In this document: piece by piece, positions 3,809 through 32,909 of the stretch
How the letters are laid out: each line of letters opens with the position of its first letter
Numbering within the stretch: the stretch's first letter is position 1
Source: an uncultured delta proteobacterium
GTDB lineage: Bacteria; Desulfobacterota; Syntrophia; Syntrophales; UBA2185
Direction of reading: 5' to 3'
DNA: 64,000 bases
NCBI GenBank assembly: GCA_963729715.1
Contig: CAVSPA010000005.1
Coordinates: forward strand, 128,001-192,000
Position numbers and translations under genes: made by a program
The notes under the pieces: generated by a model
What the model was told of the DNA's origin: nothing
What the model saw: the letters and a program-made list of their open reading frames with translations, nothing else
The model's database searches: none

Positions 3809-3951
3809 GGGGTATCTTTAAGAGATCGTCAATTATCTTAAAAATAATCTGTCCTGACCTATATTTAATTTTACAGACACTGTCAAAACAGGTGCCTTTC
3901 AGGGCAAAAGATACATCACATTTCAAATTCCCAATCTCCTTTCCGTTATTT

Positions 3952-6540: not shown

Positions 6541-6815
6541 GAGAAAGTCTTTTTAGGACATTCTGAAAACTCCATGTGGACCCATGTAATTAGTGCATTT
6601 CTGCTGCTGGTAACACTTGTGAGTATTCCGACGCAAGCCGCCACCCGAATATGATTGAAAGCGCCACCCTAATATGATTCATTCCGCCACCCGAATATGA
6701 CGGAAAGCGCCACCCGATTCCGATCCAATCCGCCACCCCTGATGAAGGGATAAACGACGCTGGATAAATCCGATGAAAGCCGTTAGGACTCCTGACAAAA
6801 ACCCAGGAGGACACC

Positions 6816-8378
6816 GTGGCGGCAGAAAGGTTATCCATGCGCACCATAAAAGAAGTTCTACGATTGAAGTGGGAGAAAAAGTTCTCCAACCAGCAGATTT
6901 CACAAAGCTGCAATATCGCCCGGAGCACAATCAGGGGATACTTGGCACGCGCTCAAAACGCCGGTCTGAGTTGGCCTCTGAGCCCCGATCTCGATGACGG
7001 CTCCCTTGAAGCGCTGATGTTTCCGCCAGCACCAACAAAAGCCCCTGACAAGGGAGGACTACCCGCAATGGAGTACCTCCGTAAGGAGCTGAACCGCAAG
7101 GGGGTAACCCTATATCTTCTGTGGCTGGAATATAGAGCAGCCAACCCGGATGGGTATCAATACAGTCAGTTCTGTCTCCTTTATCGCCAGTGGACGGGCA
7201 AGCTGGATGTTTGCCTGCGCCAGACCCATCGGGCCGGGGAAAAGGTCTTTGTTGACTATGCCGGTCAGACGATCCCTGTTACGGATCCGGTTTCCGGGCA
7301 AATAAAAGAGGCGCATCTTTTTATCGCCGCCTTGGGCGCCAGCAGCTACACGTTTGCGTGGGCCTCTTTCTCGCAGGATCTTCCTTCCTGGGTCGATGCC
7401 CATATCCGGGCATTTAACTTCTTCGAGGGCGTCCCGGAGATCCTTGTTCCCGACAATCTCAAATCCGGCGTGAACAAACCCTGCACCTACGAACCGGACA
7501 TCAATCCGACCTATCATGATCTGGCGGAACATTATGGAGCGGTAGTCATTCCCACCCGCATCGCCAAACCGAAGGACAAGGCCAAAGCAGAATCGGCGGT
7601 TTTTGTGGCGGAACGGTGGATCTTGGCGGCGCTTCGGAACCACACTTTCTTCGGCATCGTGGAACTGAACCGGGCTATTGCCGAAAAGCTTCAGGACATG
7701 AACAGCCGCAAGTTCCAAAAGATGGACGGCACCCGGAGGAGTCTTTACGAAACCATTGACCGGCCAGCTTTGAAACCGCTGCCTTCTTCTCCTTATGAAT
7801 ATGCCGAATGGAAGAAGGCGAGAGTCAACATCGATTACCACATCGAGATCGACGGTCACTATTACAGTGTTCCCTATCAACTTGTAAAAGAACAGGTGGA
7901 GGTCCGCTTCACGGCGACCACCATCGAGGCGTTGTTCAAAAACCGTCGCGTCGCAACCCATCCGAGAAGTTACCACAGAGGTGCGCACACAACGCTGGCA
8001 GAACATATGCCCAAGGCACACCAAAAATATTTAGAATGGACTCCTTCCCGGATCATGGACTGGGCAGGTAAAAACGGTCCCAACACCCGTAATCTGGCTT
8101 CCTGCATCATGGAGAACCGTAAACATCCGGAGCAGGGTTTCCGCTCCTGTCTGGGCATCATGAGGCTGGTAAAGCGATACTCATCCGAGCGGGTGGAGGC
8201 AGCCTGTGGACGTTCCCTGCTGCTGAGGGCCTACAGTTACAAGAGCGTCGAATCGATCCTGAAAACCAACCTTGACAAACAGGAGTTGCCGGAATCCCTC
8301 TCTTCCGAAAAACCGATCCTCCATTACAACATCCGGGGAAGGGAATATTACCAGCAAGAGGAGGCTGTCGATGCTTGA
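6816..8378 (+). CDS. istA: IS21 transposase
   Basis: N-terminal HTH, FVDYAG, LVPDNLKS and KDKAKAE DDE-region motifs. Confidence 0.95.
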   Translation: MAAERLSMRTIKEVLRLKWEKKFSNQQISQSCNIARSTIRGYLARAQNAGLSWPLSPDLDDGSLEALMFPPAPTKAPDKGGLPAMEYLRKELNRKGVTLYLLWLEYRAANPDGYQYSQFCLLYRQWTGKLDVCLRQTHRAGEKVFVDYAGQTIPVTDPVSGQIKEAHLFIAALGASSYTFAWASFSQDLPSWVDAHIRAFNFFEGVPEILVPDNLKSGVNKPCTYEPDINPTYHDLAEHYGAVVIPTRIAKPKDKAKAESAVFVAERWILAALRNHTFFGIVELNRAIAEKLQDMNSRKFQKMDGTRRSLYETIDRPALKPLPSSPYEYAEWKKARVNIDYHIEIDGHYYSVPYQLVKEQVEVRFTATTIEALFKNRRVATHPRSYHRGAHTTLAEHMPKAHQKYLEWTPSRIMDWAGKNGPNTRNLASCIMENRKHPEQGFRSCLGIMRLVKRYSSERVEAACGRSLLLRAYSYKSVESILKTNLDKQELPESLSSEKPILHYNIRGREYYQQEEAVDA

Positions 8379-9114
8379 TCAACAGACCATAAACAAACTT
8401 TATGAACTGAAACTGACGGGCATGGCGGAGGCCTTCGCCGATCAGCAAAACCAGCCGGATATGGATAAGCTCTCCTTCGCAGAACGTTTCGGTCTTATTG
8501 TAGATCGTCAATGGACCTGGAAAGAAAACAACCGATTGGAACGATATCTGAAAAATGCCCGGATGAAACTCAATGCCTGCATTGAGGATATCGACTATAA
8601 AACCCCGCGGGGACTCGATCGCTCAGTTATGATGAGCCTCAGCTCCTGCGATTGGGTCAAACGACACCACAACATTATTATCACCGGCCCCACCGGTGCG
8701 GGAAAAACCTTCCTCGCCTGCGCTCTGACCAACAAGGCTTGTCGGGAAGGATACCGTGCTCTCTACGTCCGATCCCCCGCGTTCTCATACCAGATGGTCC
8801 TGGCCAGGGGAGACGGAAGCTACGGCAAGACCATCAACAAACTCGCCAAGGCCCATGTCCTGGTGATTGACGATCTCGGCCTTGCTCCCATGACCGATGC
8901 CGAACGAAGAGACCTCCTGGAGGTCGTTGAGGAAAGACATGGCCACGCCTCTACTATCGTCGCCAGTCAACTCCCCGTGGAGCACTGGCATGAACAGATC
9001 GGCGATCCCACCATCGCCGATGCTATCCTTGACCGGTTGATCCATAACGCCCATAAAATAAACCTGTCCATGAAAGGAGGCTCCCTGAGAAAAAAATATG
9101 CCGGCTTGACCTGA
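8371..9114 (+). CDS. istB: IS21 helper AAA+ ATPase
   Basis: GPTGAGKT, LVIDD, DAILDRL; ATG at 8371 after GAGGAGG, overlapping the istA stop. Confidence 0.95.
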   Translation: MLDQQTINKLYELKLTGMAEAFADQQNQPDMDKLSFAERFGLIVDRQWTWKENNRLERYLKNARMKLNACIEDIDYKTPRGLDRSVMMSLSSCDWVKRHHNIIITGPTGAGKTFLACALTNKACREGYRALYVRSPAFSYQMVLARGDGSYGKTINKLAKAHVLVIDDLGLAPMTDAERRDLLEVVEERHGHASTIVASQLPVEHWHEQIGDPTIADAILDRLIHNAHKINLSMKGGSLRKKYAGLT

Positions 9115-9942
9115 AGAAGCTTCTATGAGAAAGAGCTAAAAACCAGCGTCGCTATGCTCCGACAAGGGGTGGCGGAATCAACCGGAACACCCTGGCGCTT
9201 TGAATCGGAACAGGGTGGCCGCTTCCTTCGGAATCGAGTGGCGGAATCATCGGAATAGGCAACTTGTACTTATTGCTTAGTTTTTATATCAGTCTATTAA
9301 GCTTATGGCTCTTTTTATTTATAAATTTTGGAATCCAATATTCATCTTTTGCGTGATATAAGAAGCGTGTAGCGTTTAAAGCTGTCCTTCGATTAATTTC
9401 CCTGATTGCTTGCTTATCTATGGGAGAATACCCTTTTTTTATATCTTTTCTCCAGGTAGCCCAGAGAACAATATGACTTGAAATTGGGAAAGTGACTTCT
9501 GACTCTGGCCTTCCGATTCCCATCCACGGGAAATAATAAACAGGATTGTCGCATGTCAAAAATACAGGAGCATCATCACACGTTAGAAAATGCCAAGTCA
9601 TTCGAAACAGCGCATTTATCGTGTTCGGACTTCTTTCTGGTGGTATCAATGATAACCAGAAATCTTTCGGAGGATTTTTCGAATACTCTTCTAAATTATT
9701 TTTTATTTCAGCCCTTCTTTTTTGGAGCAAATCTGTTTTATCTGGATGCTTATCGATTGAATTAGAAATTATTCTATCCCATTCCTCTTGCTGTTGTTGC
9801 GCGACACCAGGGGCCATTTCTTTCATCATGATCTTGCTTCGGGGAACCCGTTTAAGCATTACGACCATATAGGTCGCTAAGATTTCTTTATCTTGCTCTG
9901 TTATTTCTTTTTTGCCCCGAATTTTTTCGATTACCTTATTTG

Positions 9943-11292
9943 GGTACTGTCAATTTTATTGTGTAAATTTTTCATAGGCCACTTCTTGAAAGAATGGCAG
10001 GTTTTTTTGCACTTTTCCTACGGGGTTTGATCTCCAATGCAGTTCCATTTTTAGAGAGACAAAGGCCAGGAGACGATAGCAGGCAGACTCTCCGGCCAGT
10101 ATCTCCATGGATTTTGTTCTCCGTTTAAATTCCTTGTTCAACCGTTCAATGATATTTGAGGTTCTCAATGAAATCCACTCTTCCTTGGGGAAGTTGAAAA
10201 AAGACAAACAGGCGTCAATGGATCTCTCTAAACAACTTACGGCAGAAGGGATATCCTTCTCCCATTTCCTTTTGAAGATTTCAAAAGATTCCAGCGCCGT
10301 CTCCTTTGAAGAGGCATAGAAGATGGTTCTTACATCATTCGCCACGGCCTGTTTCAGTTTCTTAGGCACCTTGGCCAGAACATTCCGGGCAACATGGACC
10401 TGGCAGCGTTGGATCTTGGCTTTGGGAAACTCTTCTTCAAAGACAGATTCCAATCCCGATAAACCATCCATGATTCCCAGGGTAACTTTCTGGCCATCCA
10501 ATCCACGAACTTTTAAATCCTTGAAAAACTCTCTCCAGGAGGAAGCAGACTCTTTGTCCCCGGCCTGCAAACCTACAACCAGCTTGTGGCCTCTTTCTGT
10601 AACACCGATAGCCACCAGAACAGGTATTAACTCAATACTTCTTCCCACACGCATACGGAAAGTCACACCATCCACAAAGAGATATTTAATGGGTTCCTGA
10701 GATAGATCTCTCATCCTCCACTTCTCAACGGCCTCTGTCAGATCAGTATTTGCGTGGCTGATCTCTGTATGGGAAATACGCCGCCCGATCAATCTACGGG
10801 AGATCATGGAAAGGCTCCGGGTACTGATTCCCGTTAAAAACATCAGGCTTAAATCCCGGCTTATCTCTTCTTCGTACTGCTTGCTCCGGGGAATAACATT
10901 GGTCTTAAAATCACCCTCCCGGTCTCGGGGAATTTTGACCTTTACCTCCCCAATGTCTTTTAATGTGAAGTTACGATCATAGGTGCCATTGCGATGATTT
11001 ACCTCGCCATTACCACGTTCATAAGGTTCTCTCCCCAGAAAATGGGTGAGTTCCGCATTCATCAGCGCTGTCAGATATTGCCCAACGGTCTCTTTAATGT
11101 CCAATCGCACCATCTCAAAAAGTTGCTCCGGCTGCTCCTGAATCTCCTTGAAAATCTCCTTAACTTCGGCTACTGTAATCTCCAGTTTCATGGCGCTTTC
11201 TCCTTTCTCTCAGGTTTTGGGATAAACCCTTGTAAAGGAAAAGCGCCTTTTTTTCTACCATCATGAATTTACACAAAAGATTTTACACTACC
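9943..11292 (-). mobile_element. IS256-family insertion sequence, complete (1350 bp)
   Basis: Imperfect terminal IRs GGTACTGTCAA / TTTACACTACC; 8-bp target duplication CTTATTTG (9935-9942 and 11293-11300). Confidence 0.95.
9956..11191 (-). CDS. IS256-family (mutator-like) transposase
   Basis: PRDREG, LFVDG, MDGLSG, QRCQVH, TSNIIERLNKEFKRR motifs. Confidence 0.95.
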   Translation of the reverse strand: MKLEITVAEVKEIFKEIQEQPEQLFEMVRLDIKETVGQYLTALMNAELTHFLGREPYERGNGEVNHRNGTYDRNFTLKDIGEVKVKIPRDREGDFKTNVIPRSKQYEEEISRDLSLMFLTGISTRSLSMISRRLIGRRISHTEISHANTDLTEAVEKWRMRDLSQEPIKYLFVDGVTFRMRVGRSIELIPVLVAIGVTERGHKLVVGLQAGDKESASSWREFFKDLKVRGLDGQKVTLGIMDGLSGLESVFEEEFPKAKIQRCQVHVARNVLAKVPKKLKQAVANDVRTIFYASSKETALESFEIFKRKWEKDIPSAVSCLERSIDACLSFFNFPKEEWISLRTSNIIERLNKEFKRRTKSMEILAGESACYRLLAFVSLKMELHWRSNPVGKVQKNLPFFQEVAYEKFTQ

Positions 11293-11966
11293 CTTATTTG
11301 CGGGATCTTCAATTTTGTTTGCTAAATATCTTTCAACTTCAGGGGAATAATAGTTAGTCTCGTGACCCGTATTATTGACGTCAGACTGAAACTTATTTGT
11401 TCCACCTTTTTCGTAAGTCCAAATCATGCCATCAATCTTAGATGTAAATCCTCTAAGATAGTATTTAGGGACATAATGGTCACCCATGATTTATCAAATT
11501 TTCCTTCATTATTTTGTTCGGCAATTAATATGCTAACAACGCTTTTTCCAATAATATGAGAATTATCATATCACATGTTTTTTCTTTCCAAAAGGAGAAC
11601 ATTATATAATTACTAATGATTATCGTTCGCAATGTTGAATGGATAGGTAAAAAAAAGATATGCAACACTTAAGGAAGAACTATATAAAATAGTATTTTCA
11701 AGAATACATACAAAAGGACGCTTTTCTCCACAGCCAGTATTTTTAAGAAAATATATTTAAGAGTCTACGCAGTCTCTTAAAAATGCCTTTTTTAGCCTTT
11801 AAATAATGGCTTCTTCTTTGTGAGAGAGTTTTTTATAATCTTGACAGACATCCATACTTTCGAATAGTAATCTGTAACATACAAAAGTTTGAATATGAGT
11901 GTTCATCAATGAATGTCTATAAATCCCCTTAATTGAGACGGAATGATACTATCTCTTTAGTAAATG

Positions 11967-12141
11967 AGTTGGGATGTTATATGGATCCGCATAACATCCC
12001 AACTGAAAAATATAAAAATGGTCGATAATGCTTTATTATTATATTATAAAATATGAAACATAAAGTATATTCGCGGGGTGTTATGCCGCAATTTTTGCGG
12101 TGTTTGGGTTTTTATGCGGATCCATATAAACACTGTTGGAT
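11967..12141 (+). repeat. Long inverted-repeat site ending in GTTRRRY core (attC/attI-like)
   Basis: 18-bp perfect IR TTATATGGATCCGCATAA (11977-11994) / TTATGCGGATCCATATAA (12112-12129), then GTTGGAT (12135-12141) just before the HNH gene. An alternative local 14-bp hairpin spans 11967-12004. Confidence 0.5.
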
Positions 12142-12164
12142 CGCCAAAGGAGGCTATATTGGCC

Positions 12165-13028
12165 ATGACACTAAAAGATGATTTGCTGCCGACAGGGAAG
12201 AATCGCGTTATTGACTTAGTTAGCGCTGCCGGTGTCGATGTGTCAGACTGGAGCCACTACAAGCGAGGCTCAAAATGGGCGGCAGCCAATCCGAAGTACT
12301 GCTATGAATGGTCTTTCGTCGAGCCAGGAATAGTAGTTGTGCTAAACCTCTGGTATGCAAACGTCGATGAGCGGAACGGTGTCGTGTCCGTCGTTACCAA
12401 CATGCGGGAGGCCAGTAAGCAACTTGTGACGAACGGGGCGAAGGATGTATGGATCAAGCGTGCTGAGAAGATGGACGAAGCCATACAGGTTGCAATTCGC
12501 GATGGTCTGAAGGTGCGTGTCATTATCAATGATGGCGAGATGCGTGATTCGAACGATCCCAAGGCAAAGGCCTCGGTCGTCAAGCATCGCCACCTTGATC
12601 CGATCCCTTGGACTATCAAGTCATACGACGCGTCGACTGGTCAGTGCATTCTCGTGCGTGGAGGAGATGCTGTTACGTCGATAGACCAATTCGACGTTGC
12701 TTCGCCATCAACACCGGACCCCGAACAAGTGGATGTACACGGAAAGGCGTTCGTCCGAAGTGCGGCTGTCCGTGCCGCGGTTTTGGCCCGCGCCAAAGGT
12801 CGATGTGAATACTGCGGGAAGCCGGGTTTCGCCACTACGCTTGGCGAAGTGTTTCTTGAGACTCACCATATCGTCCCGTTTTCTAAAGGGGGCAAAGACA
12901 TGATCTCCAACGGGGCAGCGGTTTGCCCAAACCATCACAGAGAAGCACACCACGGCGCCAAGGCCGCGCTGATTCGTGACCACCTGCTTGAGGTCGCAGC
13001 AATCAGCATTGTGGAGAAGGCAGTCTAA
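12165..13028 (+). CDS. HNH endonuclease (McrA-like C-terminus) with uncharacterised N-terminal domain
   Basis: RCEYC...ETHHIVP...NGAAVCPNHHREAHH; ATG 12165 follows AAGGAGG. Confidence 0.85.
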   Translation: MTLKDDLLPTGKNRVIDLVSAAGVDVSDWSHYKRGSKWAAANPKYCYEWSFVEPGIVVVLNLWYANVDERNGVVSVVTNMREASKQLVTNGAKDVWIKRAEKMDEAIQVAIRDGLKVRVIINDGEMRDSNDPKAKASVVKHRHLDPIPWTIKSYDASTGQCILVRGGDAVTSIDQFDVASPSTPDPEQVDVHGKAFVRSAAVRAAVLARAKGRCEYCGKPGFATTLGEVFLETHHIVPFSKGGKDMISNGAAVCPNHHREAHHGAKAALIRDHLLEVAAISIVEKAV

Positions 13029-13076
13029 CAAGTCGCTGCAACCGATGGCGCACTCCGGTTGAGTTTTTCGTTAGGG
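13023..13076 (+). other. Integron attC site
   Basis: GTCTAAC-AAGTC-GCTGCAACCG...CGGTTGAGT-TTTTC-GTTAGGG; the HNH stop codon lies inside the RYYYAAC box, as in typical cassettes. Confidence 0.75.
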
Positions 13077-13091
13077 AAAGGAGGATCAATC

Positions 13092-13403
13092 ATGCAGAAT
13101 GTCGCACAAGCAAATTCCAATTTAGTGGTCACACTGTACTTCGCTATGAAAATACTTCCGATGATAATTTCTGGAATATGTATTTATCTTGGCTATAAAC
13201 TGTTTATTTTAGGCGTTACTGGACAGGCTAGCATCAGTGTTCAATCCAATACCGTTAGCGGCCAATTACTCAATGCAGCGCCTGGGCTATTCTTTGCGGT
13301 TGGCGGTGTTGTCGCTTTGATATTCTCTATAAGTAAAGGTGTGCAAATTGGCTTTAATAACAGTGATGGCTCAGGCATTGATATTCAAACTTTGCGCAGG
13401 TAG
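13092..13403 (+). CDS. Small two-TM membrane protein, gene cassette
   Basis: GGAGG RBS and two hydrophobic segments. Cassette starts G/TTAGGG and ends CCCTAAC, which are exact complements. Confidence 0.75.
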   Translation: MQNVAQANSNLVVTLYFAMKILPMIISGICIYLGYKLFILGVTGQASISVQSNTVSGQLLNAAPGLFFAVGGVVALIFSISKGVQIGFNNSDGSGIDIQTLRR

Positions 13404-13408
13404 CAATT

Positions 13409-13429
13409 CCCTAACCCGGCGCTCAAGCG
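13409..13429 (+). other. Truncated attC (left half only)
   Basis: CCCTAAC-CCGGC-GCTCAAGCG, with no matching right half downstream. Confidence 0.6.
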
Positions 13430-13447
13430 AATATCATATGAAGTATA

Positions 13448-13508
13448 GCATTATGCTACGCTTCAACGGCCAGCCATAGTGAGTCCGAATGAAAGCGCCT
13501 CATTATGC
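13448..13508 (-). other. Decayed attC-like site downstream of the NACHT gene
   Basis: Minus strand GCATAAT-GAGGCGCTTTCATTCGGAC...GGCCGTTGAAGCGTAGC-ATAATGC resembles attC, but both core boxes are mutated. Confidence 0.35.
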
Positions 13509-13544
13509 GGCACGATTTGCTCTCGTACATTCGAAATGCATCAG

Positions 13545-16500
13545 TCATATCGGCTCCGTAAGTGTAATCTGCGGCCAGGGAACTCCCGTTGTAATATTGG
13601 GATGACGTGGTTCGGACTCGACGTGTCCATAATCGTCCCGAATTTCATCTATGACGGTCAGGCACTCGGTCGCAAGCCGAGATTCCGCAGGGCTACCGTT
13701 CACCACCATATCAAAAAGATTTTCCCTAAGTTCAGTTGCAGGCAAACTATATAATTGCTGCATTCCGGATGACTCTATTGGAGTCCGACCAACGAGCAAA
13801 TGGCGCAGCGCCGTATATAGTGTGGTATCTCGGAATCGCTTATCTTGTGCTGCGCCAACGCGAACAAGAAGTAACACCCCGTCTGCATCTGCCGCATTTG
13901 CAATGGCGTTCTCAAGTATTGACTTAGCAGAACTGTCGGTAATTCGTTGGAACCGTTCATATACGTCTTGACGAAACTGCCCATGGGAATTCACTAGGGC
14001 CGTGAGTCTATTGCCGAAATCCATCCTATCGTGGCTTCCACGTTTGCCAGATAACGATGCATTGCAGACTAAGTCCAGCAATATTCTGGCAGCCGTCAGG
14101 GTATTGCGTTTGGTCAGTGCCTCCAGCCATTCATGCTCATTGAGAAATCGCTCATCTCTCTTTGCCAGTTCGCTAAGGATGTTCTCAGCTTCGATGGTCG
14201 GCGCATAGCTTAATGCAGAAAGCAACCCACGAAGCTTCCAAGGCACCAAATAACGGTCTTCCAAACGGGCGAGCACATCCAAAATGGAACTGGGCGTTTC
14301 CGTGAATGGTAAAAGCCTTAACCACGCATCCAGACGCCATCCATCTTGTTCCTGAAGCATCCACGGATTCGTCTTCGCGTTTTCCAAAAGCTCATCAATA
14401 CCCTGAAGAACAATCTCAGAAGAAATCACTTCTCGAGAAAGCACGAGGACATTTAGAAGCACTTGCTTTTCAATGGCAGGGAGTGGCAATTTTAGCAATG
14501 ATCGAATCATATCGGCTTTATCAACATAGGGCATGCTGAATGCAACAGTTGCAAGCTTTAGAGCATGTCTGTAGTCATCTTGTGCATCCGATTTGATGAG
14601 ATCATCGACCACGGCTAGGATGTCATTGACGAATGCCTGCGTCTCAACTCCGGTCCCGGGTTGACGCTTTGTGTATTCACTTGATACTACTGAAAAGTCG
14701 GGCCATGATCTAATGAAACCTCTGTCTTTCTTGACAGGTTGCGATTTCATCCAGACAGCTTTGAGGACGTAGGCAGCATCAACACCGAAGTCATGGTTTG
14801 ACAGATAGGCTTTCATTATTCGTACAGTCTGATCATCACCAATAGCGGCGAAGGCGCGTCCGTACTGGGGGGTCCAAGACATCTGTGCGTCGTTCCGAAT
14901 ATGACGACCGGTCTTTCGCGCATCCAAAAACTCTTTCATGGCTCGTTTTCGCCGTTCCAGGTCTTCCGACAGCAGTTCCTGAAGCACAGGCACGAGCGCA
15001 GGCGATTCAAGTCGTTCTGCAGCTTGTGCTATCTCAGCAAATTGTGCACGCGTAGCCTCAGGGGAAGCGAGGAGGGTTTGTGCCCACTGCAGGACGGCAG
15101 TGGTCGCATGGTCATACGCAGTAGCGTCAAGTCCGAGTGATTGCTGTTCGACGCTCCCTCCATGCCGGAATATGAGGTCAGCGAGTATGGCAATTTCGTC
15201 TGGCCTTTCAGTTGCTGCATGTTCAAGAAGAGCCTGAATGAATGAATTGGGTTTGGTATTCCAAATCCAACGGCACAGCCTGTGATATTCATCGCTCAGT
15301 GCCTTATCGTATCTACCGTTGTTATCTTTTATCTTGCTGTGTATACTGAATACCTGATCGATGAGTTGACCGATGCTTTTCGTCCCGATAATACTGACTG
15401 CTGATTCTGCTCCCTTATCCTCACCCGAACTGCGTAAGACACGTTCTACAAGCGGCCCCTCGTCAATGACTAAATCGGATTTCTTCAGTAATTCGTTGGT
15501 TCCGAACGGCACTGGCCTCCCACTTTCAAGCAGCGACACGAAAGCACCGACTACATCCTCAGGGTATAACTCATACGTCCGATGAACGAGCCATGTATTA
15601 TCCTGTGCCTTATCCGAAAAATCTATTTTCTCAATGAGCTCAACAATCTTCGTACTCGTTTCAGGATTGCGAACATTCGAATTCAAGAGCATATTTAGAA
15701 TTTTCCGAGTATCCGTTTCTGCAGCAAGAAGGTCATTAGCTTCTTTTGCCATCCGTGCCGATACTTGCGGATCAGCGAATTCATGGGGGTACCACTTTGT
15801 GGCTAGGGAACGCCAAACCTCATCAGGAGCGGTCTTGAGAATATCTTTTGCGAAGCGATCCGCGCGTCTGAACAGCAGAGATTCGATAACGGATTTTTTG
15901 ACCTCTGAACTCGCATCGTTCTTGGCTAGGTGTGTGGCAAAGTCAATACCGTCCATGCCGCCATTGCTCGCGATCTCTGCAATCACGTTCACCCTTACTT
16001 TCTCGGGAAGTAGCGCGATTTGTTTCTGCGCATCTGAACCAAGGACACTCACACGAAATTTTCGTCCAGACCGCAGAGCGTGAAGATGTATCTGGTCATT
16101 TGGGTCCGAAATCAAAGGCCAAATATATTGCGAAAACTCGGCCCGGCCTGTTTCAATCATAAACTGTACGGCACGGTCCACGCACCCTTCGGTGTGCCAT
16201 TTCCTGGCAAAGGATATGGTATTATCCCTGATCTGCTTCCACACTTTATCAGATGAACGATAAATCATTTCCGCTGAAAGCAAAGGATCGATTCCTAGTG
16301 TTTCAAGAATAATGCTTGATACAGCCTTAATACTGTCTTGATCCGCACGGGATAAACGGTCACATGCAAAAAGGACCGCTTCTTCCCAAATAGGAATGTC
16401 AAGCACTTCTTCTCTCAACGTCTTCTTGGCTTTGTTATCACCCGACGCAGCAGAGAGCATCAGTTGCTGTACCCAGAACGATGCATACCATTCCTGGAAT

Positions 16501-17933
16501 TGCTGGTGCTGGAACGATACACCACCCGATTCTGCTTCTGACCGAACGAGCATATGCGCATTCACTAGTGTATCAAGCACCATCATAGGTTGAAGAAGCT
16601 GCGAGATTTGCTTGTCGGCCTTAAGATGCTCTTGCACAGTATTGACTACGGTGCGGGCCTGGGCATCGGAAAGCACTATGGTCTCCTGACGTGTGGCTTC
16701 ACCGGCTATGGCTTCCAGAAAATCACTATGGAAACCTTGGAGTGCTTCTCGGAGCGTTATTAATTTATCCTTGTCTCGCTCCAGTTCCTTGACAAAAGAT
16801 CGCAATATTTCTTCTTTGGTTGTCGGAAGCGACCCCCCTGGCGTTTGTTTCAGCAAGGCTGTCAGGTAAAGCGGGATCGCTACCAATTCCCTAAGACCGG
16901 GCGTTCGCCAAGCATGGTCCATCAGGGATACCCCATCCGAACCACGTAGCGCCTTCGCGATATCCAGTTGCTGTTCTTCTGACAGTACGTCCACTTCGAC
17001 AACAGGTCCTTTGATCGGGATATCAAACTCCTTATGCCTTGAACTGACAACCAGACGTATTTCGGGGAAGTCTCGCCGGAGAGATTTAATGTCGTTGCGT
17101 ACACGTCGTTTGGATGCTACATCCAACTCATTCCATCCATCCAGAATAAGCACCAACCTTCCATGCTTGGCGAGCATATCCAATTGACATTCTCTTGCAT
17201 CCCGAAACGACGCTCGTTGCAGGAGCGACTGAAAGAAGGTGTCGGAACGGGTTGACCACTCACTCAGTGGAACAAACGCAGCGACAGACGAGGCTTTGTT
17301 AAGAATTGCCTCCGTCACTTGTAGAAGCGTCGTTGTCTTTCCAGTGCCGGGCGGAGCTATAACAGCGATTTCATCAAATACTTCGATCGCTGAGGCCAAG
17401 CCGGAAGCCGTAAACACATCCGCGCTCTCCCCATCCACCATCTTGAGAGCAAGAGCTATGGCATGCGATGGCCATCCGGGCATGCGCTGGAAGGCCGATA
17501 AGTCTAATCTGGAGTAATCAATAAGTAGATCGGTGGCCGTTTGAACATCTCCATCATCCGTGAGGAGCGTTCCGACTGGACTCGGTTTGGAGGAAGCAAC
17601 CTCTAGGAAAGACCTGTGTTCGGCTATTCTCTTCCAGGAAACCAACTCATTGATCGTAAAATGCGCATCATCGGAATCAACCAGCTTCGCGTGAGTCCCG
17701 CAGAGCCAGATACCGTTGGAATGGTTCTTGCGTTGATCGCTCGTTAAGTTTGGATCGTAACGTGGCCCACCAAGGGACGCGGCGGTTATGTGAGCTGCAA
17801 AACCGACGTTGATTGTTCCTTCGTCATCGGACGCGGCTCCTCTCGTCGGGATTCCGCAATCAGGCTTTGAGCATCTGTACCCCGCGCGCTGTGCTATCAA
17901 TTCCTTAGTTTTCGGCGTAAATTCGTCTCTCAT
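13545..17933 (-). CDS. HNH-NACHT (STAND/NLR-like) protein with long helical-repeat C-terminus
   Basis: N-terminal RCSKPDC...AAHITAASLGGPRYD...NGIWLCGTHAKLVD; Walker A APPGTGKTT; Walker B LILDGWNE; winged-helix FQHQQFQEWY; 1462 aa. Confidence 0.85.
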   Translation of the reverse strand: MRDEFTPKTKELIAQRAGYRCSKPDCGIPTRGAASDDEGTINVGFAAHITAASLGGPRYDPNLTSDQRKNHSNGIWLCGTHAKLVDSDDAHFTINELVSWKRIAEHRSFLEVASSKPSPVGTLLTDDGDVQTATDLLIDYSRLDLSAFQRMPGWPSHAIALALKMVDGESADVFTASGLASAIEVFDEIAVIAPPGTGKTTTLLQVTEAILNKASSVAAFVPLSEWSTRSDTFFQSLLQRASFRDARECQLDMLAKHGRLVLILDGWNELDVASKRRVRNDIKSLRRDFPEIRLVVSSRHKEFDIPIKGPVVEVDVLSEEQQLDIAKALRGSDGVSLMDHAWRTPGLRELVAIPLYLTALLKQTPGGSLPTTKEEILRSFVKELERDKDKLITLREALQGFHSDFLEAIAGEATRQETIVLSDAQARTVVNTVQEHLKADKQISQLLQPMMVLDTLVNAHMLVRSEAESGGVSFQHQQFQEWYASFWVQQLMLSAASGDNKAKKTLREEVLDIPIWEEAVLFACDRLSRADQDSIKAVSSIILETLGIDPLLSAEMIYRSSDKVWKQIRDNTISFARKWHTEGCVDRAVQFMIETGRAEFSQYIWPLISDPNDQIHLHALRSGRKFRVSVLGSDAQKQIALLPEKVRVNVIAEIASNGGMDGIDFATHLAKNDASSEVKKSVIESLLFRRADRFAKDILKTAPDEVWRSLATKWYPHEFADPQVSARMAKEANDLLAAETDTRKILNMLLNSNVRNPETSTKIVELIEKIDFSDKAQDNTWLVHRTYELYPEDVVGAFVSLLESGRPVPFGTNELLKKSDLVIDEGPLVERVLRSSGEDKGAESAVSIIGTKSIGQLIDQVFSIHSKIKDNNGRYDKALSDEYHRLCRWIWNTKPNSFIQALLEHAATERPDEIAILADLIFRHGGSVEQQSLGLDATAYDHATTAVLQWAQTLLASPEATRAQFAEIAQAAERLESPALVPVLQELLSEDLERRKRAMKEFLDARKTGRHIRNDAQMSWTPQYGRAFAAIGDDQTVRIMKAYLSNHDFGVDAAYVLKAVWMKSQPVKKDRGFIRSWPDFSVVSSEYTKRQPGTGVETQAFVNDILAVVDDLIKSDAQDDYRHALKLATVAFSMPYVDKADMIRSLLKLPLPAIEKQVLLNVLVLSREVISSEIVLQGIDELLENAKTNPWMLQEQDGWRLDAWLRLLPFTETPSSILDVLARLEDRYLVPWKLRGLLSALSYAPTIEAENILSELAKRDERFLNEHEWLEALTKRNTLTAARILLDLVCNASLSGKRGSHDRMDFGNRLTALVNSHGQFRQDVYERFQRITDSSAKSILENAIANAADADGVLLLVRVGAAQDKRFRDTTLYTALRHLLVGRTPIESSGMQQLYSLPATELRENLFDMVVNGSPAESRLATECLTVIDEIRDDYGHVESEPRHPNITTGVPWPQITLTEPI

Positions 17934-18087
17934 GCAACCGTTCCGGCTCAGGAATTAAATCGAATCCCTCTTTGGAAATGGTTATGCGGTGAAGTATCAG
18001 GGAATTACTATTCTTGGCTTTACCCATAAGGACTACCTGGCAGGGAGAATGATTGATTTCTCGAGCTGCCGATTAACTGATCGAAAG

Positions 18088-18147
18088 GAAGTAACGAAAA
18101 GATCACTGGCACTAGGAACGGGCGTCCGGTGGAGTAACTGGTTGATA
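18088..18147 (-). other. Degenerate attC site after the REase-TOPRIM pair
   Basis: Minus strand TATCAAC-CAGTT-ACTCCACCGGAC...GCCAGTGAT-CTTTTC-GTTACTT; the L-boxes pair and the AAC/GTT triplets are intact. Confidence 0.55.
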
Positions 18148-18181: not shown

Positions 18182-18661
18182 TCATATCTTAGATTTCCGT
18201 TCTAACAACTTTTTAATTCTAGTGTAAAATCGAGTATTTTTTGGTGTAAATTTTTTTTTCTTCATAACTTGAATAGCGTTCATTCTAATTTTTTCCTTTG
18301 GGAAAATTGGGCTCCATTTTGAAAGCTCAGGCATAAAATTGTTCAAACGACATATTTGGGCAATTTCCGCTTCCATCACGGGTATGGCAAATACAATATC
18401 AATGTTTTCATAATTCGATAGCTGAGATTTAATTCGCTTTACATTCACATTTTCGTCATCCATTTCACCATCAGAATCTAGTATCAGTAGAATTCTTCCA
18501 CCCTTTCTATGACGATAAGCAAGAGATATCGCCAACGAAATTGCTTCTGATTGGCCCCCACCAATTGGCACCACCATCCACTCATTTCTTGATATTTCTG
18601 TTTTGAATAAGTTTGCAATTAGAAGTGAATCTGTTTTGCCTTCAGTGATTATGTATTTCAT
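18182..18661 (-). CDS. Stand-alone TOPRIM-like domain protein
   Basis: IITEGKTD and LILDSD match the TOPRIM E and DxD motifs; ATGA overlap with the upstream gene. Confidence 0.7.
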   Translation of the reverse strand: MKYIITEGKTDSLLIANLFKTEISRNEWMVVPIGGGQSEAISLAISLAYRHRKGGRILLILDSDGEMDDENVNVKRIKSQLSNYENIDIVFAIPVMEAEIAQICRLNNFMPELSKWSPIFPKEKIRMNAIQVMKKKKFTPKNTRFYTRIKKLLERKSKI

Positions 18662-19200
18662 CTTTTTATCTCCTGAAGAAAGGCCTTAAGGTGGTAGTCA
18701 AATACGCCTCTTTCGATAAGTGCGTTTACTTTTTTTTCCAGCAGCGCACGGAACAATTTGTTCTTTTTTGTCGCACTATTTATTGCGGTATCAATCTCAT
18801 CGCCTTGAAAAATTATAACATTCTTAGGTTGAAGGAATTTCATATATTCAAGTGCTGCTGTAGTTACTCCAGATTTTGCAATTATTAGCCCCATTGTGTA
18901 TGAGGGTCTAGCCTGCATTCTTATCATTAACTTAGCTATTGGCTCGATGTCGATTTTATCTTTTTTATAAAACTTTGACTCAACTAAAAATGGGATGTGG
19001 TTTAAATAAATAACACCATCGATTTGTTCTTTTTGTTGTGCAATAGGATAGCAGATATTTAAGCCAGATAATTCAAATAGTCGAATCATTAGATACTCGA
19101 ATTCAACTCCAACATTAGGAAAAATTCTTGTGGTGTAGCCATCTTTTGATATGTGTTTGAACTTTTTCTTCCCGTCACTAAAAGTGGCTACATCTGACAT
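18658..19200 (-). CDS. Mrr-like PD-(D/E)xK restriction endonuclease
   Basis: GVEFEYL, EQIDGVI, LVESK motifs; start at 19200 or 19221. Confidence 0.8.
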   Translation of the reverse strand: MSDVATFSDGKKKFKHISKDGYTTRIFPNVGVEFEYLMIRLFELSGLNICYPIAQQKEQIDGVIYLNHIPFLVESKFYKKDKIDIEPIAKLMIRMQARPSYTMGLIIAKSGVTTAALEYMKFLQPKNVIIFQGDEIDTAINSATKKNKLFRALLEKKVNALIERGVFDYHLKAFLQEIKR

Positions 19201-19499
19201 TATTCTATCGCTTAGCTCCATAGAATAAATCCTTGCTGCAAATATGCATAACAATTAATATACGATGCCAACAGTCTAACGATGTCATGAAGAACTAACG
19301 CTGTCTGAGATCGCCTCCTATCCGGCGCCTGAGGCGAATCAGCATCTGAAAATTCTCGCCAGACTGCTGGCTCCTCAAAGCGGTGGCAACGCCATGATAG
19401 CCAGTGGGGCTCAAATAAATTCATTTATTATCAACATTTATTGCCGGTTTTGCGTAACAGATCAAATATACCTCAATTAGGCCTTTTAAATCGGGATGA

Positions 19500-19881
19500 T
19501 TGGGGAATAAAAAAGTGACGTCAAACTTTGCCTCTTGAAATATCTTATGGACCTTTTCATCCAACCAATGTCTTTGATCGATTAATGTGCAATTTGGGAA
19601 TTTTGCATCATGCCCATCACGTTCCCATTCGAAATTAGTTCATATATGGTCCCAAAATCTCTGAACTACATTTCCTTTTCCTATATAAAGAATTTCTCCA
19701 TCCTCCATTGAAGAAAATATATACACCCCTCCTTCCGACTGCCTACAACGTCCTTATATATATCAGGAAATTTCCCGGCAGGAATTTTCTTACAGACCTC
19801 ACATTCAATCTTCTTTCCCATTAATTTAGCAATGGCATTTATAAAATCATTCAATACTTGCGGAACTTCTTTGATATTCAT
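19500..19881 (-). pseudogene. GIY-YIG nuclease pseudogene
   Basis: After a frameshift near 19730 the minus strand reads GVYIFSSMEDGEILYIGKGNVVQRFWDHI-TGA. The 3' boundary is approximate. Confidence 0.65.
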
Positions 19882-20305
19882 TTTCCCCTTCTTTATCCGG
19901 GTGTATGGCTAACAATTAATATCCACACTTTGGTTAAATAGGAACAGCACCCGTTTCGCCCATCTTAGGCCTGTCACGGCGCAGCGATCTTTTACCAATA
20001 ATAATGCTCTCTTCATATGATAAAATCAAGTCATTACCCTTCGGTCAAATTCGGTCAAATATTGAATGCCGTTTGAAATGTAGCATCCTTGTCACCGTTG
20101 GAGAATTATTGAGTTCAGGAAGCTGTGCTTACAGAAAACATTGAACGAAACACCGTCAAAAGTCATCTTTTTAAGAAAATATTTTTAAGATTATCAGTAT
20201 TATCTTAAAAAAACTATTATAGACCATGCATCTACACTGTCCTGGATATAGAATGCATGATTCTGTATGACTATCTTCTTCTTTACGTCGGGTAGGCTTT
20301 TCTGT

Positions 20306-21340
20306 TTATTCTTTGTTAAACATAGTTTCAAAACCACCGACTACTTGGAGGATCTCATCAAACTCCGGCATCTCACCAAAGAACATTTCTCCCTGCATGG
20401 CATTGTAATCTTGCTTCCATGCTGAGACTTGATCTTTTCGGGGGAGAAGACAAAGGGCTCCTTTTTTGAAGGTATCGTAGTCCACCCACTTTATGTTGAA
20501 ATAAACAGCGCGATGTCCGGCCACTCCATGAAATAGAGCAAGATTCTCCATTGCCCGTGCAGCTACACCTCTTCGTATGAGACACCATAAATCATAGTAA
20601 TGCCGGGCAAGGCGGGTTTTTCTAGGTTTATCAATTGGTCTAAAGGTTTCTTCATGTAGCAGCATAGCTTTTTCCCAAAACGTTCTCTCTGGTGCTACTG
20701 CATGGACCATGATTTCTTTTGTGACCAAGAGCTCCGGAAACGCCTTTGCGAGATAGGGCTGGATTGTGGGAGATTCCGTAGGCCATGTGTCAGAGCGCGC
20801 TCCGAGTTCAATTTTCACTTGTGGGCTGAGGTATGAAAAATGGCTAGTTAGAGTTCCTGGATATTTGAACAATAAAGTCTGTTCATCAGGGTCTTCATCC
20901 CTTGAAGCCATCTCTAATGACCACTCAGCGCCATTAGGAAGAGCTTTCATGAAACTTTGCTCAAGAGAAGTTTTCAGCTCGTCACGGATACAGCTCTGGC
21001 AAGCCTTCTTAAGACTCTGTATGCGTTTTCTAAGTTGTTTTGCGCTTTGTGCCTTGTCGGGACTAAGTTCCCCGCCAAAACCGAGAACGTCTCGGCTGAC
21101 CACCACATCAATGTCTTCTGAAAAGCGTTCGATCAAAGCCCATGCTTTTGAAAGGGATGTTCCACCCTTGAAGGTTAAGTGTTCACCCCATCTAGGAAGT
21201 TTGAAAAGTTTCCATAACGTCCAGCACACCCAGAAATCCTTTTCTATGCTCTCTGGTGGTAACCCAAGTTTAGCTTGGGCCTGTTCAAAGTACAGCCGTT
21301 GCTCACTTGGACTTCCATTGATAAAGTTATCCACGTTCAA
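20306..21340 (-). CDS. abiEii: AbiEii/AbiGii-family nucleotidyltransferase toxin (type IV TA)
   Basis: IEKDFWV, FKGGTSLSK, RFSEDID, ERTFWEK, RHYYD. Confidence 0.92.
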   Translation of the reverse strand: MNVDNFINGSPSEQRLYFEQAQAKLGLPPESIEKDFWVCWTLWKLFKLPRWGEHLTFKGGTSLSKAWALIERFSEDIDVVVSRDVLGFGGELSPDKAQSAKQLRKRIQSLKKACQSCIRDELKTSLEQSFMKALPNGAEWSLEMASRDEDPDEQTLLFKYPGTLTSHFSYLSPQVKIELGARSDTWPTESPTIQPYLAKAFPELLVTKEIMVHAVAPERTFWEKAMLLHEETFRPIDKPRKTRLARHYYDLWCLIRRGVAARAMENLALFHGVAGHRAVYFNIKWVDYDTFKKGALCLLPRKDQVSAWKQDYNAMQGEMFFGEMPEFDEILQVVGGFETMFNKE

Positions 21341-21944
21341 TCACCGTTTTGCTGGCAATGTTCCGTATTATAGATGCGATCCAAGCTGGAGCGTAGCGAA
21401 GATCTTTGCTTAGCTGATTCATGTCGTCATCGCTCAGGCGTCGTTTGAGGGCATGAAGCATAGAATCATCTATATTCTTCCGGCCTATATAACGAAGAGC
21501 CTGTATAACAAGACCGCTAACCCTACCGGCAGTAGCCGTATTTCGTGGTGTGGTACGCCTGAGAATGATTTCCTGCTTTCCCAACTTTACATGTTTAGAC
21601 GGACCGTTTGTTAGGAATACGACTTTCATTGGAACTTGGTTGGAGAGGCCAAGAAGGTTTGCTGCATATGCACCGGAGGGTTGTAAGCGTGTGGCATCTC
21701 GATCTATGAGAGCCTGCGCGACGGCGTCTACTGAAGGAGATAGAAGACCGAGTTGAGGATGCTTGCGTGGATAATCGTAGAGACCACGCTTCAAGCGACG
21801 AATAGTTCCCTTACGGTGAAGCCGTGTAAGTGCCATACCGATGCTGCGGGGATCAGCAAGAGCAGAAAATAGTTTTGGCGTAAACACGATACCCCTCCCA
21901 CGACCGTAAATCATAGAAAGTAGTTTATCATCAATACTTTGCAT
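21327..21944 (-). CDS. abiEi: AbiEi-like antitoxin (DUF6088)
   Basis: wHTH with IRRLKRGLY and GAYAANLLGLSNQVP; directly upstream of and overlapping the toxin gene. Confidence 0.88.
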   Translation of the reverse strand: MQSIDDKLLSMIYGRGRGIVFTPKLFSALADPRSIGMALTRLHRKGTIRRLKRGLYDYPRKHPQLGLLSPSVDAVAQALIDRDATRLQPSGAYAANLLGLSNQVPMKVVFLTNGPSKHVKLGKQEIILRRTTPRNTATAGRVSGLVIQALRYIGRKNIDDSMLHALKRRLSDDDMNQLSKDLRYAPAWIASIIRNIASKTVIERG

Positions 21945-21959
21945 AACGATTCCCAATAA

Positions 21960-21998
21960 TTTTTTGTTGAAAAAACTATACATAATTTTCAACAAAAA
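21960..21998 (-). promoter_or_regulatory. Inverted-repeat operator of abiE
   Basis: TTTTTGTTGAAAA-N12-TTTTCAACAAAAA directly upstream of abiEi; AbiEi proteins autoregulate via promoter IRs. Confidence 0.65.
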
Positions 21999-22155
21999 AC
22001 AATGGATTTTTTTTGTTGTTGAAACGTGGGATAAAGGTACGAACATAGCACCATTTCTTTGGCCTGGCGGAATGCTGATCTACCTCGGCAACAAGATTTT
22101 CAAAATTGCAGAGCCTTCTATTTGGGCTATACCATCAAGGAGATTGTTCGGCAGT

Positions 22156-25252: not shown

Positions 25253-25270
25253 AGCGCAACGCCCCCCCCT

Positions 25271-25357
25271 TGTCATTTCGAAGGAACGCAGTGACTGAGA
25301 AATCTTAATGTCCTTCTCTCAGTCAGGAAAAATATTTCTCGCGTTGCTCGAAATGAC
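25271..25357. repeat. REP-like palindrome family GTCATT...AATGAC (also at about 28113, 29224/30978, 31017, 32674, 36706-36814, 40402-40515, 52309)
   Basis: Recurrent intergenic TGTCATTTCG...GAGAAATCT / AGATTTCTC...CGAAATGACA and GGATTCCCG...CGGGAATGAC hairpins. Confidence 0.8.
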
Positions 25358-25395
25358 GAGAAAATAAGATCCTTCCCGGGGCAGCATGACGGCGG

Positions 25396-25884
25396 CTATT
25401 TTGTTGTGTACCCGCGACCGTCAAGACAGGCGCCCATCGCCCGTTGATAGTCTGCACGAATTTGGTTCAACTGGGCCTGTGTCATGCCACCGGTAGGATA
25501 AGTCGGATCGTAATGTGTCTGGCCTACAGCCCAGCTATGGCATTCGTAACGATCCTTCGCCTGCAGCTCTTCGCTCTGGCCCTGCCGGGCATAGACAAAG
25601 ATCCTGTCAGACGATGATGGCTGTACTGATGGCGCAGGTTGCACATAAACCTGAGGCTGTTCCCGGATCACCACCGGCGGAGGCGCGTAATAGGGTGAAT
25701 AATAATAGGGCCCATAATAATAAGGTGCAGGCGCATAATAAGGCGCCAGAACTGCTGCACCTCCTACTACAGCCCAAGGCGCCCACCACCAACCCCAATG
25801 GCCGCCTCTTGCCTCACTGGGCAATGGGTTTACGAGAAAGATGATCATTGTGAATATAAGAACTGCGCAGGCAGCTTTCTTCAT
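25396..25884 (-). CDS. Exported Pro/Tyr-rich hypothetical protein
   Basis: Signal peptide, YYAPPP-rich linker, C-terminal DRYECHSWA...ACLDGRGY. Confidence 0.75.
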   Translation of the reverse strand: MKKAACAVLIFTMIIFLVNPLPSEARGGHWGWWWAPWAVVGGAAVLAPYYAPAPYYYGPYYYSPYYAPPPVVIREQPQVYVQPAPSVQPSSSDRIFVYARQGQSEELQAKDRYECHSWAVGQTHYDPTYPTGGMTQAQLNQIRADYQRAMGACLDGRGYTTK

Positions 25885-25965
25885 GTTTGTCCTCCTTGCT
25901 TGATTCTGTAGATATGTTCTTAATCTTTGTACTCCCCTTTTCAGAGTATCTCCATACGTAAAACA

Positions 25966-25981
25966 AGCAAAAAGCAGGCCT
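25966..25981 (-). promoter_or_regulatory. Putative sigma54 promoter
   Basis: Minus strand AGGCCTGCTTTTTGCT (GG-N10-GC), with repeated TGGAT/ATCCA sites 70-140 bp upstream. Confidence 0.45.
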
Positions 25982-26141
25982 GAAATAGGAAGGCATGTCT
26001 AAGTGTAAGATTCCAAATCACATACAGCAATAATACATTTTTTTGATTGGATTATTCCCATTAGAAATTGGATAGAATGTATACAGTGATTAGTATCCAG
26101 TTGAGTAATAATTATCCAGGAAGGCAGTCGGTTATTTATTC

Positions 26142-26166
26142 GCAGGATTAAAGTCCTGCACTACAT
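26142..26166. repeat. GTAG-type REP (GTAGTGCAGGACTTTAGTCCTGC); also at 45819, 45856, 48857, 48897
   Basis: Near-identical intergenic palindromes with a GTAG/CTAC foot. Confidence 0.8.
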
Positions 26167-26180
26167 TATTATATTGGGGT

Positions 26181-26218
26181 AGTCAACATTTGACTTAACT
26201 CAAAGGAAACTGTAGATT
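26181..26218 (+). promoter_or_regulatory. Sigma70 promoter with overlapping palindromic operator
   Basis: TTGACT-17 bp-TAGATT; AGTCAA-CAT-TTGACT palindrome covers the -35 box. Confidence 0.55.
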
Positions 26219-26251
26219 ACGTTCTAAAAAAAATCATAACAGGGTGCTTCT

Positions 26252-27289: not shown

Positions 27290-27360
27290 GGCAGGATGCT
27301 GTTCCATTGTGAAATGATGACCTGGCATAAAATTTTTAGAGAATCCATGGAGGTGCCGGC

Positions 27361-28083: not shown

Positions 28084-28345
28084 AAATAAGAGTGCGTTAT
28101 TCCAGCGCCCTTCTTGTCATTCCAGCGAACGCTGGAATGACAAGGGCATCTTGCATGATAGGCACGAGTTGAAGGGACTGTGGATAAGAGGAAGTTGTCG
28201 AATATCGTACCTGATTGAAGCTCTCCGAAGTGAACTGCGGAGAATCTCCAATCCATAAGGAGAAATAATGTTTCCCATTCGCTCGCTTACCCCGCCGCAA
28301 GCTAAGGGGTTGCGCTCGCTGCCGGATTCAGATAAATGATGCAAC

Positions 28346-29221: not shown

Positions 29222-29238
29222 TCTGGATTCCCGATCAA

Positions 29239-32873: not shown

Positions 32874-32909
32874 CATATACAGGACAGACTCAAGCAGGAG
32901 GTTAAGTAA

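Follow-up and report, generated by a model that had tools for sequence, protein, structure and literature searches.

Domain architecture of the protein

The window analysed here is a stretch of 64,000 nucleotides of contig CAVSPA010000005.1 (positions 128,001 to 192,000), from an uncultured bacterium of the Syntrophales. On its minus strand, at 13545..17933, lies a gene with an ATG start and an intact frame that encodes a protein of 1462 amino acids. From the N terminus, this protein consists of an HNH domain, a NACHT module, a HEAT-like solenoid and an NCAB2 domain, and its nucleotide-binding motifs are intact. An initial annotation of the locus had described this open reading frame (ORF) as an HNH-NACHT protein resembling NLRs. 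The description is correct because sequence matches (Pfam, PADLOC and PDB), the positions of the Walker motifs and the structural alignments of AlphaFold2 (AF2) models agree. The AF2 models cover residues 1-1190 (predicted local distance difference test (pLDDT) score 87.0) and residues 460-1462 (mean pLDDT 87.8). In pairwise comparisons with five relatives, the ratio of nonsynonymous to synonymous substitution rates (dN/dS) per domain was 0.10-0.42, with the exception of one NCAB2 value of 1.95, which came from very few changes.

The HNH domain (residues 1-110; 17604..17933, minus strand) is of the Cap5/SPARHA type. Residues 2-110 match the SAVED-HNH and CBASS-effector models of PADLOC (E 2e-24 to 1e-8), and the PDB sequences matched were 9om4 (E 2.7e-9) and Cap5 (7rwk, E 4e-5). 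The AF2 model of the domain aligned to Cap5 7rwk with a Z score of 13.6 (2.3 Å, 103 residues). A beta-beta-alpha fold with a Cys/His zinc site is present, and the zinc ligands are C21, C26, C78 and H81. These matches and the structural alignment bear out the zinc-binding, HNH-like N terminus of the initial annotation. PsCap5 uses His56 as its general base and coordinates the catalytic Mg through His91 and Asp95 (PMC12141522). In SPARHA, the bridging Glu, E50, is required, and E50A is inactive (PMC12738770). From the alignments with 7rwk and 9om4, H48 probably corresponds to His56 of PsCap5, D86 to Asp95 and A82 to His91. F45, which was placed by its spacing of three residues before the general base, probably takes the position of the bridging Glu (PsCap5 Glu53, SPARHA E50). 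Residues were counted in 79 diverse representatives with a complete HNH domain. H48, R68, N73, C78 and D86 are each invariant (79/79), and D88 is found in 63/79. Four of the 79 carry the canonical His at position 82, and two of these also have Glu at 45; therefore, a canonical Cap5-type HNH can occupy the same slot. Among shorter hits of other architectures, 83 of 85 have the motif, and all 83 have A/G/S at 82 and Asp at 86, with Asp at 88 in 79. The dN/dS of the HNH domain was 0.10-0.23 and was the lowest of the four regions in four of the five comparisons, all of which share the query. The HNH type lacking the His was also seen in shorter proteins of E. coli elements, at L160:488-1594 (Z-region of phage P2-EC46) and L159:3992-4780 (an E. 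coli plasmid). The sole other match to the family profile in the source genome is a degenerate Cap5-type HNH reading frame (G000:C3:295464-296075).

The NACHT module (about residues 128-490; 16464..17552, minus strand) comprises a nucleotide-binding domain, a helical domain and a winged helix, as indicated by Pfam NACHT and by structure. Pfam NACHT matched residues 191-303 with an E value of 1.9e-5, just short of the model cut-off. The Walker A motif APPGTGKT (residues 193-200; 17334..17357, minus strand) has G198 and K199 in 79/79 representatives. In the Walker B motif LILDGWNE (residues 262-269; 17127..17150, minus strand), DGWNE starts at residue 265, and N268 is found in 79/79 and E269 in 76/79. 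The model of residues 1-1190 matched NLRC4 (Z 15.1, 3.5 Å, 404 residues), NOD2 (Z 14.5), NAIP5 (Z 14.1) and NLRP3 (Z 13.9), and these four are the nearest structural neighbours among the top five VIA matches and the top Foldseek matches. Avs4 matched over the nucleoside triphosphatase (NTPase) region with a Z score of 11.4 (5.5 Å, 392 residues). Thus the protein has the P-loop NTPase with Walker A, followed by helical and winged-helix domains, that characterizes the NACHT clade. Kibby et al. gave D[GAS]hDE as the NACHT-defining Walker B motif (bioRxiv 2022.07.19.500537). Here the penultimate Asp is replaced by Asn, and the Mg-binding Asp, the small residue and the final Glu are retained. Despite this mismatch, fold and Pfam place the protein among NACHTs. 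DGWNE is invariant across 120 rows of the family alignment and the Asn is found in 79/79 representatives; therefore, the unusual Walker B that the initial annotation had pointed out is a family signature and not a sign of decay.

The NACHT module is followed by a HEAT-like alpha-solenoid, the presumed sensor, in the AF2 model (residues 491-1375; 13809..16463, minus strand) and by an NCAB2 domain (PF22726, residues 1376-1454; 13572..13808, minus strand; Pfam E 5.3e-20). The helical C terminus noted earlier is indeed all-helical in the AF2 model except for two short strands in NCAB2, a domain that the initial annotation had left unnamed. Foldseek searches with the sensor gave generic HEAT/importin-type solenoids only, with a best template modelling (TM) score of about 0.3, and the sensor profile had no match under E 0.02 among PDB sequences. 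The ESM Atlas matches, at <=0.91, were to clusters without a name and to HEAT clusters; we regard them as leads only. The NCAB2 tail is strongly conserved.

Integron cassette history and dif-like sites

The gene is flanked by two attC sites of different families. Its own attC (13448..13508, minus strand) is decayed: the L boxes pair at 6/7 positions, AAC of R'' has become AAT, and GTT of R' has become ATA. The upstream attC (18089..18147, minus strand), which lies after a Toprim-like gene, keeps AAC and GTT, with L boxes pairing at 4/7 positions, and recurs in about ten other genomes of the order. A covariance model of attC, R2, was trained on the downstream sites of five relatives, with none from the window. 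R2 is family-specific, misses the other attC sites of the window and has weak covariation (6/500 shuffles). It found 13448-13508 with an E value of 1e-9, the best match in the window and the sole match listed for the genome. Across 153 loci, R2 was significant only behind the gene, in nine loci of at least 71% identity: the five used for training, a duplicate of one of these sites and three copies of the 95% relative. Because R2 positives are confined to these close loci, cassette carriage is shown for one subclade only. DNA folding energy did not single out attC in the three nearest regions (z +0.4 to -1.0); it gave z -1.8 and -2.4 for 19268-19410. A strict attC heuristic was used for listing candidates only, because it lacked specificity across the genome, with 3 sites on contig C5 and 4-7 in shuffled sequences.

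The cassette origin of the gene lineage is settled by the metagenome locus L085, whose gene is 85% identical. There the gene stands alone between two intact attC sites in a cassette of 4,552 bp. The upstream R' GTTATGC at 1461 complements R'' GCATAAC at 5959, the next R' is at 6013, and the L boxes pair at 7/7 positions. The boxes of the flanking Mrr and PIN cassettes match likewise. In the window copy, the upstream R' GTTACTT is not complementary to the R'' GCATAAT of the gene. No integron integrase was detected in the source genome, where the best TIGR02249 score was 83.8 bits against a cut-off of 265; this assembly has 19 contigs and is rated 100% complete, and an unassembled copy is possible. 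An integrase is present in the genomes of two relatives (G151 and G152), and no match was found in G107, which belongs to the same genus. Neither excision products nor joints were found in any contig of four runs, no RNA run was listed as containing the sequence, and a BLAST search of plasmids with the upstream attC site gave chance hits only. Since there is no usable attC and no detected integrase, the window copy is a fixed relic and not an excisable 4.6-kb cassette. The initial annotation had suggested an unusually large cassette of about 4.6 kb, if the attC-like sites were real. Both sites are real attC derivatives, by the R2 match and by recurrence in the order, and both are decayed. The interval from R' box to R' box is about 4.64 kb. 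The large cassette thus stands for the lineage, but not for the window copy.

The relic lies against a fragment of another array. The stretch at 13423..17936 (minus strand), which is 96.7% shared with the closest relative, ends 3 nt before the ATG and just past the dead attC. Homology to a contig of run X4 ends at these two points as well; the contig and this 95% relative are near-copies and were counted once. On the opposite strand, a canonical attC (13023..13076, plus strand) lies behind a type IV restriction endonuclease (REase)-like HNH gene (12078-13028) and belongs to a separate array fragment. The left half of an attC (R'' and L''; 13409..13428, plus strand), which ends a cassette for a 114-amino-acid protein (13059-13403), is severed at the flank of the NACHT gene, and its R'' complements the R' at 13070-13076. 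The dead attC therefore abuts the severed half-site of an oppositely oriented cassette. This junction is not an assembly error, because a contig of run X2 bridges it (13386-14008). At another locus (L008:12430-12500), an insertion splits the R'' of the attC that follows the gene. The inserted sequence resembles the inverted 3' end of a group II intron; Rfam did not confirm this.

The gene now lies between dif-like sites that partition the defence islands of the genus. Two palindromic 28-bp sites (11+6+11), at 11755..11782 and 20183..20210, are the left and right bounds of an 8.4-kb segment with the gene, and a further such site is at 3816-3843. The source genome has 15 of these sites at <=1 mismatch (contigs C2-C5 and C18), and shuffled sequences gave 0, 1 and 0. 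Exact copies occur in nine of 11 genomes of the genus, 2-17 in each, and their central hexamers belong to a small recurring set; a reversed control gave none. On contig C2, five sites stand 5-8 kb apart among AbiE, CHAT-TPR, DUF4238, PDC-S46 and type I restriction-modification (RM) genes, and the segments between them hold some non-defence genes too. G107 has a 1334-amino-acid P-loop gene between two such sites, one of which carries two mismatches; this gene is 9 kb upstream of the orthologue, and the segment adjoins a type III RM system. The P-loop protein (L173:437-4438), which is exactly flanked by the two sites, has no match in PADLOC. Because one dif-like site sits between convergent genes, a recombination site is favoured over an operator. 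The dif (pdif) sites of Acinetobacter are 28 bp long (11+6+11), with a variable centre and many copies bounding accessory genes (PMC6449649). The sites described here share this geometry, the variable centre and the many copies around accessory DNA, but differ in their near-identical palindromic arms, their host group and their cargo, which is largely defence. The 28-bp sites may be a module-shuffling system, of which a limited literature search found no description for this genus.

Distribution, proposed function and alternatives

The family is large and patchily distributed, and its effector is nearly fixed. Of 7,999 candidates scored in a word search, 840 were relatives; searching representatives at 50% identity with the sensor profile gave 747 clusters at E<=1e-30. 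In GTDB, 160 stretches were confirmed and 77 loci of 34-95% identity were retained, from Desulfobacterota-type, alpha-, beta- and gammaproteobacterial, acidobacterial, Nitrospira and Planctomycetes-Verrucomicrobia-Chlamydiae (PVC) records. The closest relative with a named record is a Syntrophales genome. With the source genome counted, a full-length copy is found in 2/11 genomes of the genus and 2/151 genomes of the order. Among the best 150 representatives, 102 have at least 1340 amino acids; 96 of these match HNH, four seem to be truncated at the start and two have another N terminus. Plasmid records hold nine full-length copies, and none of the five matches in phage records was full-length. 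Neighbours were scanned in the 62 of the 77 GTDB loci that have a full-length ORF, by searching the two nearest ORFs per side with PADLOC at E<=1e-15. Matches were found in 29/221 neighbour ORFs and 24/62 loci, for example to AbiE, Qat, Dsr2, Gabija, ThsB and type I RM.

On balance, we favour the reading that the protein is a bacterial pattern-recognition receptor of the NLR type which acts on its own, belongs to an uncharacterised family and would abort phage infection by DNA cleavage. The steps of its action are proposed by analogy to Avs, Cap5 and SPARHA. The resting monomer would be auto-inhibited, and the HEAT solenoid would bind a conserved phage protein. Nucleotide exchange would then allow the NACHT modules to oligomerise, probably to a tetramer, and the oligomer would gather the HNH domains into paired active sites that cut DNA non-specifically. 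H48 would be the general base, and the metal would be held by D86, with help from D88 or from an adjacent protomer, where Cap5 uses a His/Asp pair. In this history the lineage would have spread as an integron cassette, and the window copy would have become fixed in an island partitioned by dif-like sites. In favour of this reading are the structural matches to NLRC4, Avs4 and Cap5, the invariant HNH residues and the low dN/dS of the HNH domain, the canonical Cap5-type HNH in a few members, the occurrence of the same HNH type in shorter proteins, the patchy distribution and the defence genes nearby. It has been reported that thirteen STAND families sense phage proteins via helical-repeat sensors (PMC13581612), and an HNH of the same clade fused to NACHT-TPR was argued to act as an oligomer (PMC12738770).

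Several observations weigh against this reading. The native leader of the gene was lost in the window copy, where homology to the closest relative extends only 3 nt beyond the ATG, and promoter-like sites are about as frequent as expected by chance (10 vs 8.5 +/- 3.2). About 7 of the 24 loci with PADLOC matches depend on generic kinase, helicase or Fic domains, 38/62 loci have no matching neighbour, and the counts lack a random-gene control. In the HNH domain, the slot of the Mg ligand His91 of Cap5 is taken by Ala82 (A/G/S/V in 75/79, His in 4/79) and that of the bridging Glu by Phe45 (Glu in 15/79, missing in 64/79). The initial annotation had proposed a single-gene pattern-recognition nuclease. 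An NLR-like, single-gene and probably antiphage sensor is predicted from fold, family size, patchiness and neighbours, but the nuclease part is less secure because the HNH lacks the Mg-binding helix His and mostly the bridging Glu; what it keeps is the general-base His and one Mg ligand, D86. The HNH is therefore either a re-wired nuclease or a non-cutting domain. We lean slightly toward a re-wired but probably active site. In the other case, the same phage-sensing NLR would use the HNH as a zinc-stabilised DNA-binding or oligomerisation domain, and would block replication or transcription or recruit an effector. The loss of the second metal ligand and of the bridging Glu fits this proposal, as do the C-terminal TIR domain added in 4/120 of the best homologues, as if a further effector were useful, and the use of the same HNH type as an N-terminal add-on of Shedu nucleases (PADLOC SduA). 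We nevertheless consider it rather unlikely, since H48, N73 and D86 are invariant, as catalytic residues would be, and no conserved partner nuclease adjoins the gene; the 843 neighbour ORFs fall into 721 clusters and include no general partner.

The remaining alternatives concern the trigger, the partner and the role of the protein. It is improbable that the trigger is not a phage protein, with the receptor guarding a host protein via NCAB2 or the solenoid, or sensing nucleic acid or the entry of plasmids. In favour, Kibby et al. suggest that a host component may anchor NACHTs through the small C-terminal domains that follow the repeats (bioRxiv 2022.07.19.500537), no phage activator was identified for four tested sensor clusters that did defend (PMC13581612), and the NCAB2 tail is strongly conserved. 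However, a family spread over many phyla at 34-95% identity is more in keeping with recognition of a conserved foreign fold than of a single host protein, and in the Avs families tested, direct binding of phage proteins by the large helical sensors was modelled or seen in vitro (PMC13581612). A paired-NLR system, in which a second STAND protein would be sensor or executor, could draw on the related STAND gene of about 1300 amino acids directly upstream in 9/77 loci and on another STAND family in four more; since the window copy lacks a STAND partner, the gene of the intact L085 cassette is alone and most loci have no partner either, we find this very improbable. Equally remote is a role outside defence, as a signalling or regulatory STAND or as a selfish passenger. 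Defence and non-defence STAND clades are interspersed (PMC13581612) and no validated-system model matches the sensor, whereas the effector type, the cassette carriage, the defence-rich neighbours and the patchy presence speak for defence. A bolder version of the favoured phage-sensing NLR, which we put forward only tentatively, adds a sensor for a phage fold beyond Avs1-21, a new HNH site completed on oligomerisation and a capture from cassette into dif module. The site without the second metal His could be completed, for example, by Asp-x-Asp of a neighbouring protomer, which would act as a built-in safety catch. The gene would have moved first as a 4.55-kb integron cassette and would then have been captured into shufflable defence modules bounded by the 28-bp sites.

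Comparison with known systems gave no validated-system match for the NACHT and sensor regions in PADLOC, NCBIfam and PDB sequences, of which the libraries may lack Avs7-24. In PADLOC, only the HNH region matches, and no characterised system is matched from end to end. As in bNACHT proteins (Kibby et al.), the layout is effector, NACHT and repeats, and the fold is closest to animal NACHTs, but the Walker B is DGWNE instead of D[GAS]hDE. The bNACHT paper lists HNH among NACHT effectors and NCAB among C-terminal domains, and in its available text the legend of the tested proteins names neither; it describes the effectors as highly variable (bioRxiv 2022.07.19.500537), whereas the effector is nearly fixed here (96/102). 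Thus an HNH-NACHT-repeat architecture is already predicted in print. The protein shares with Avs1-24 the single large STAND form, a nuclease-type N-terminal domain and a helical-repeat sensor of >400 amino acids, but no Avs model in PADLOC or NCBIfam matches it. Avs7 and other newer Avs structures were absent among the structural matches, which leaves kinship possible. Lee et al. described 90 sensor clusters and 13 newly decoded families (PMC13581612). The available text of this Avs paper does not contain 'HNH', and most of the effector mutants in it belong to the QxK, ExK or Asp type. In the libraries searched, the sensor has no match to a named Avs or bNACHT family; the comparison with the clusters of Lee et al. 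covered text only, which limits the distinction. With Cap5 (HNH-SAVED) and SPARHA (HNH-APAZ and short Argonaute), it shares the HNH clade, the fold, the general-base His, the Asn, the zinc ligands and the helix Asp. It differs in that the helix His is replaced by Ala/Gly/Ser, the bridging Glu is mostly replaced and control is by NACHT-HEAT, not by SAVED or Argonaute. Like integron antiphage cassettes, the L085 gene is a single defence gene bounded by attC sites, and its array also contains Mrr and PIN genes, whereas the window copy is no longer a functional cassette. Integron defence cassettes are reported to be smaller than usual (bioRxiv 2024.07.02.601686), and that of L085 has 4,552 bp. A literature search on NCAB2, PF22726 and HNH-NACHT found no paper devoted to such a system, the available text of the DefensePredictor and Shedu papers describes no HNH-NACHT system, and no report on the activity of the HNH subtype lacking the His was found in the available text of the cited literature.

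We regard the protein as an uncharacterised, probable defence protein resembling NLRs, whose sensor is unmatched, whose HNH is atypical and whose lineage was once carried as a cassette. The NLR family is large, compact and easily cloned, and is suited to published phage-gene screens. It would test a Cap5-type HNH under NACHT control, which has so far been argued (PMC12738770), and if the nuclease activity is true, it would give a function to a broad HNH subfamily without the canonical metal ligand. Although integron cassettes tend to be small, L085 demonstrates that they can carry a full-size NLR, and this cassette is among the larger ones of integrons. The dif-like sites hint at a second route for the shuffling of defence genes. 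Tests are warranted by its altered active site, by the large cassette proven for its lineage and by the dif-like modules.

Neighbouring genes and other features of the island

Around the gene, the window holds the type IV REase-like HNH gene, an Mrr gene, AbiE, DUF4238 genes and insertion sequence (IS) elements. Upstream, a low-GC region (18182..19254, minus strand) carries a Toprim/OLD-like gene, which was a weak match, and the Mrr-type nuclease gene, and an AbiEii/AbiEi pair (20306..22046, minus strand) is at the edge of the defence island. No tRNA was found in the window, and an Rfam scan of the window and the loci of three relatives gave no match.

Two families of large proteins recur beside relatives of the gene. 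The related STAND gene of about 1300 amino acids lies on the same strand, often overlapping the start of the HNH-NACHT gene (L049, L050, L054, L070, L073, L074, L075, L081 and L082), and is often preceded by AbiE. One member has a weak match to Cap4, and there is no PADLOC match. The other, a different NACHT-like family of about 1510-1560 amino acids, is found in L031 (12650-17329), L035, L036 and L043.

Within the window, the module adjacent to the gene encodes an 862-amino-acid SEC-C and DUF4238 protein (3952-6540, minus strand). An IS21-family element is located at 6625-9247, and a DUF4238 gene (9284-11487) is split by an IS256-family element (9956-11191) with inverted repeats at 9942-9969 and 11266-11293. 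At the start of the HNH cassette gene there is a 26-nt inverted repeat (11977-12002/12104-12129), which is 92% complementary with its arms 101 nt apart. An ORF broken by a frameshift and a stop (19424-19881, minus strand) resembles a GIY-YIG nuclease, and the hairpin region at 19268-19410, with attC-like right ends, follows it. Finally, dispersed intergenic repeats of about 30-47 nt, in both orientations and like repetitive extragenic palindromic (REP) or miniature inverted-repeat transposable (MITE) elements, are found at 25270-40516.

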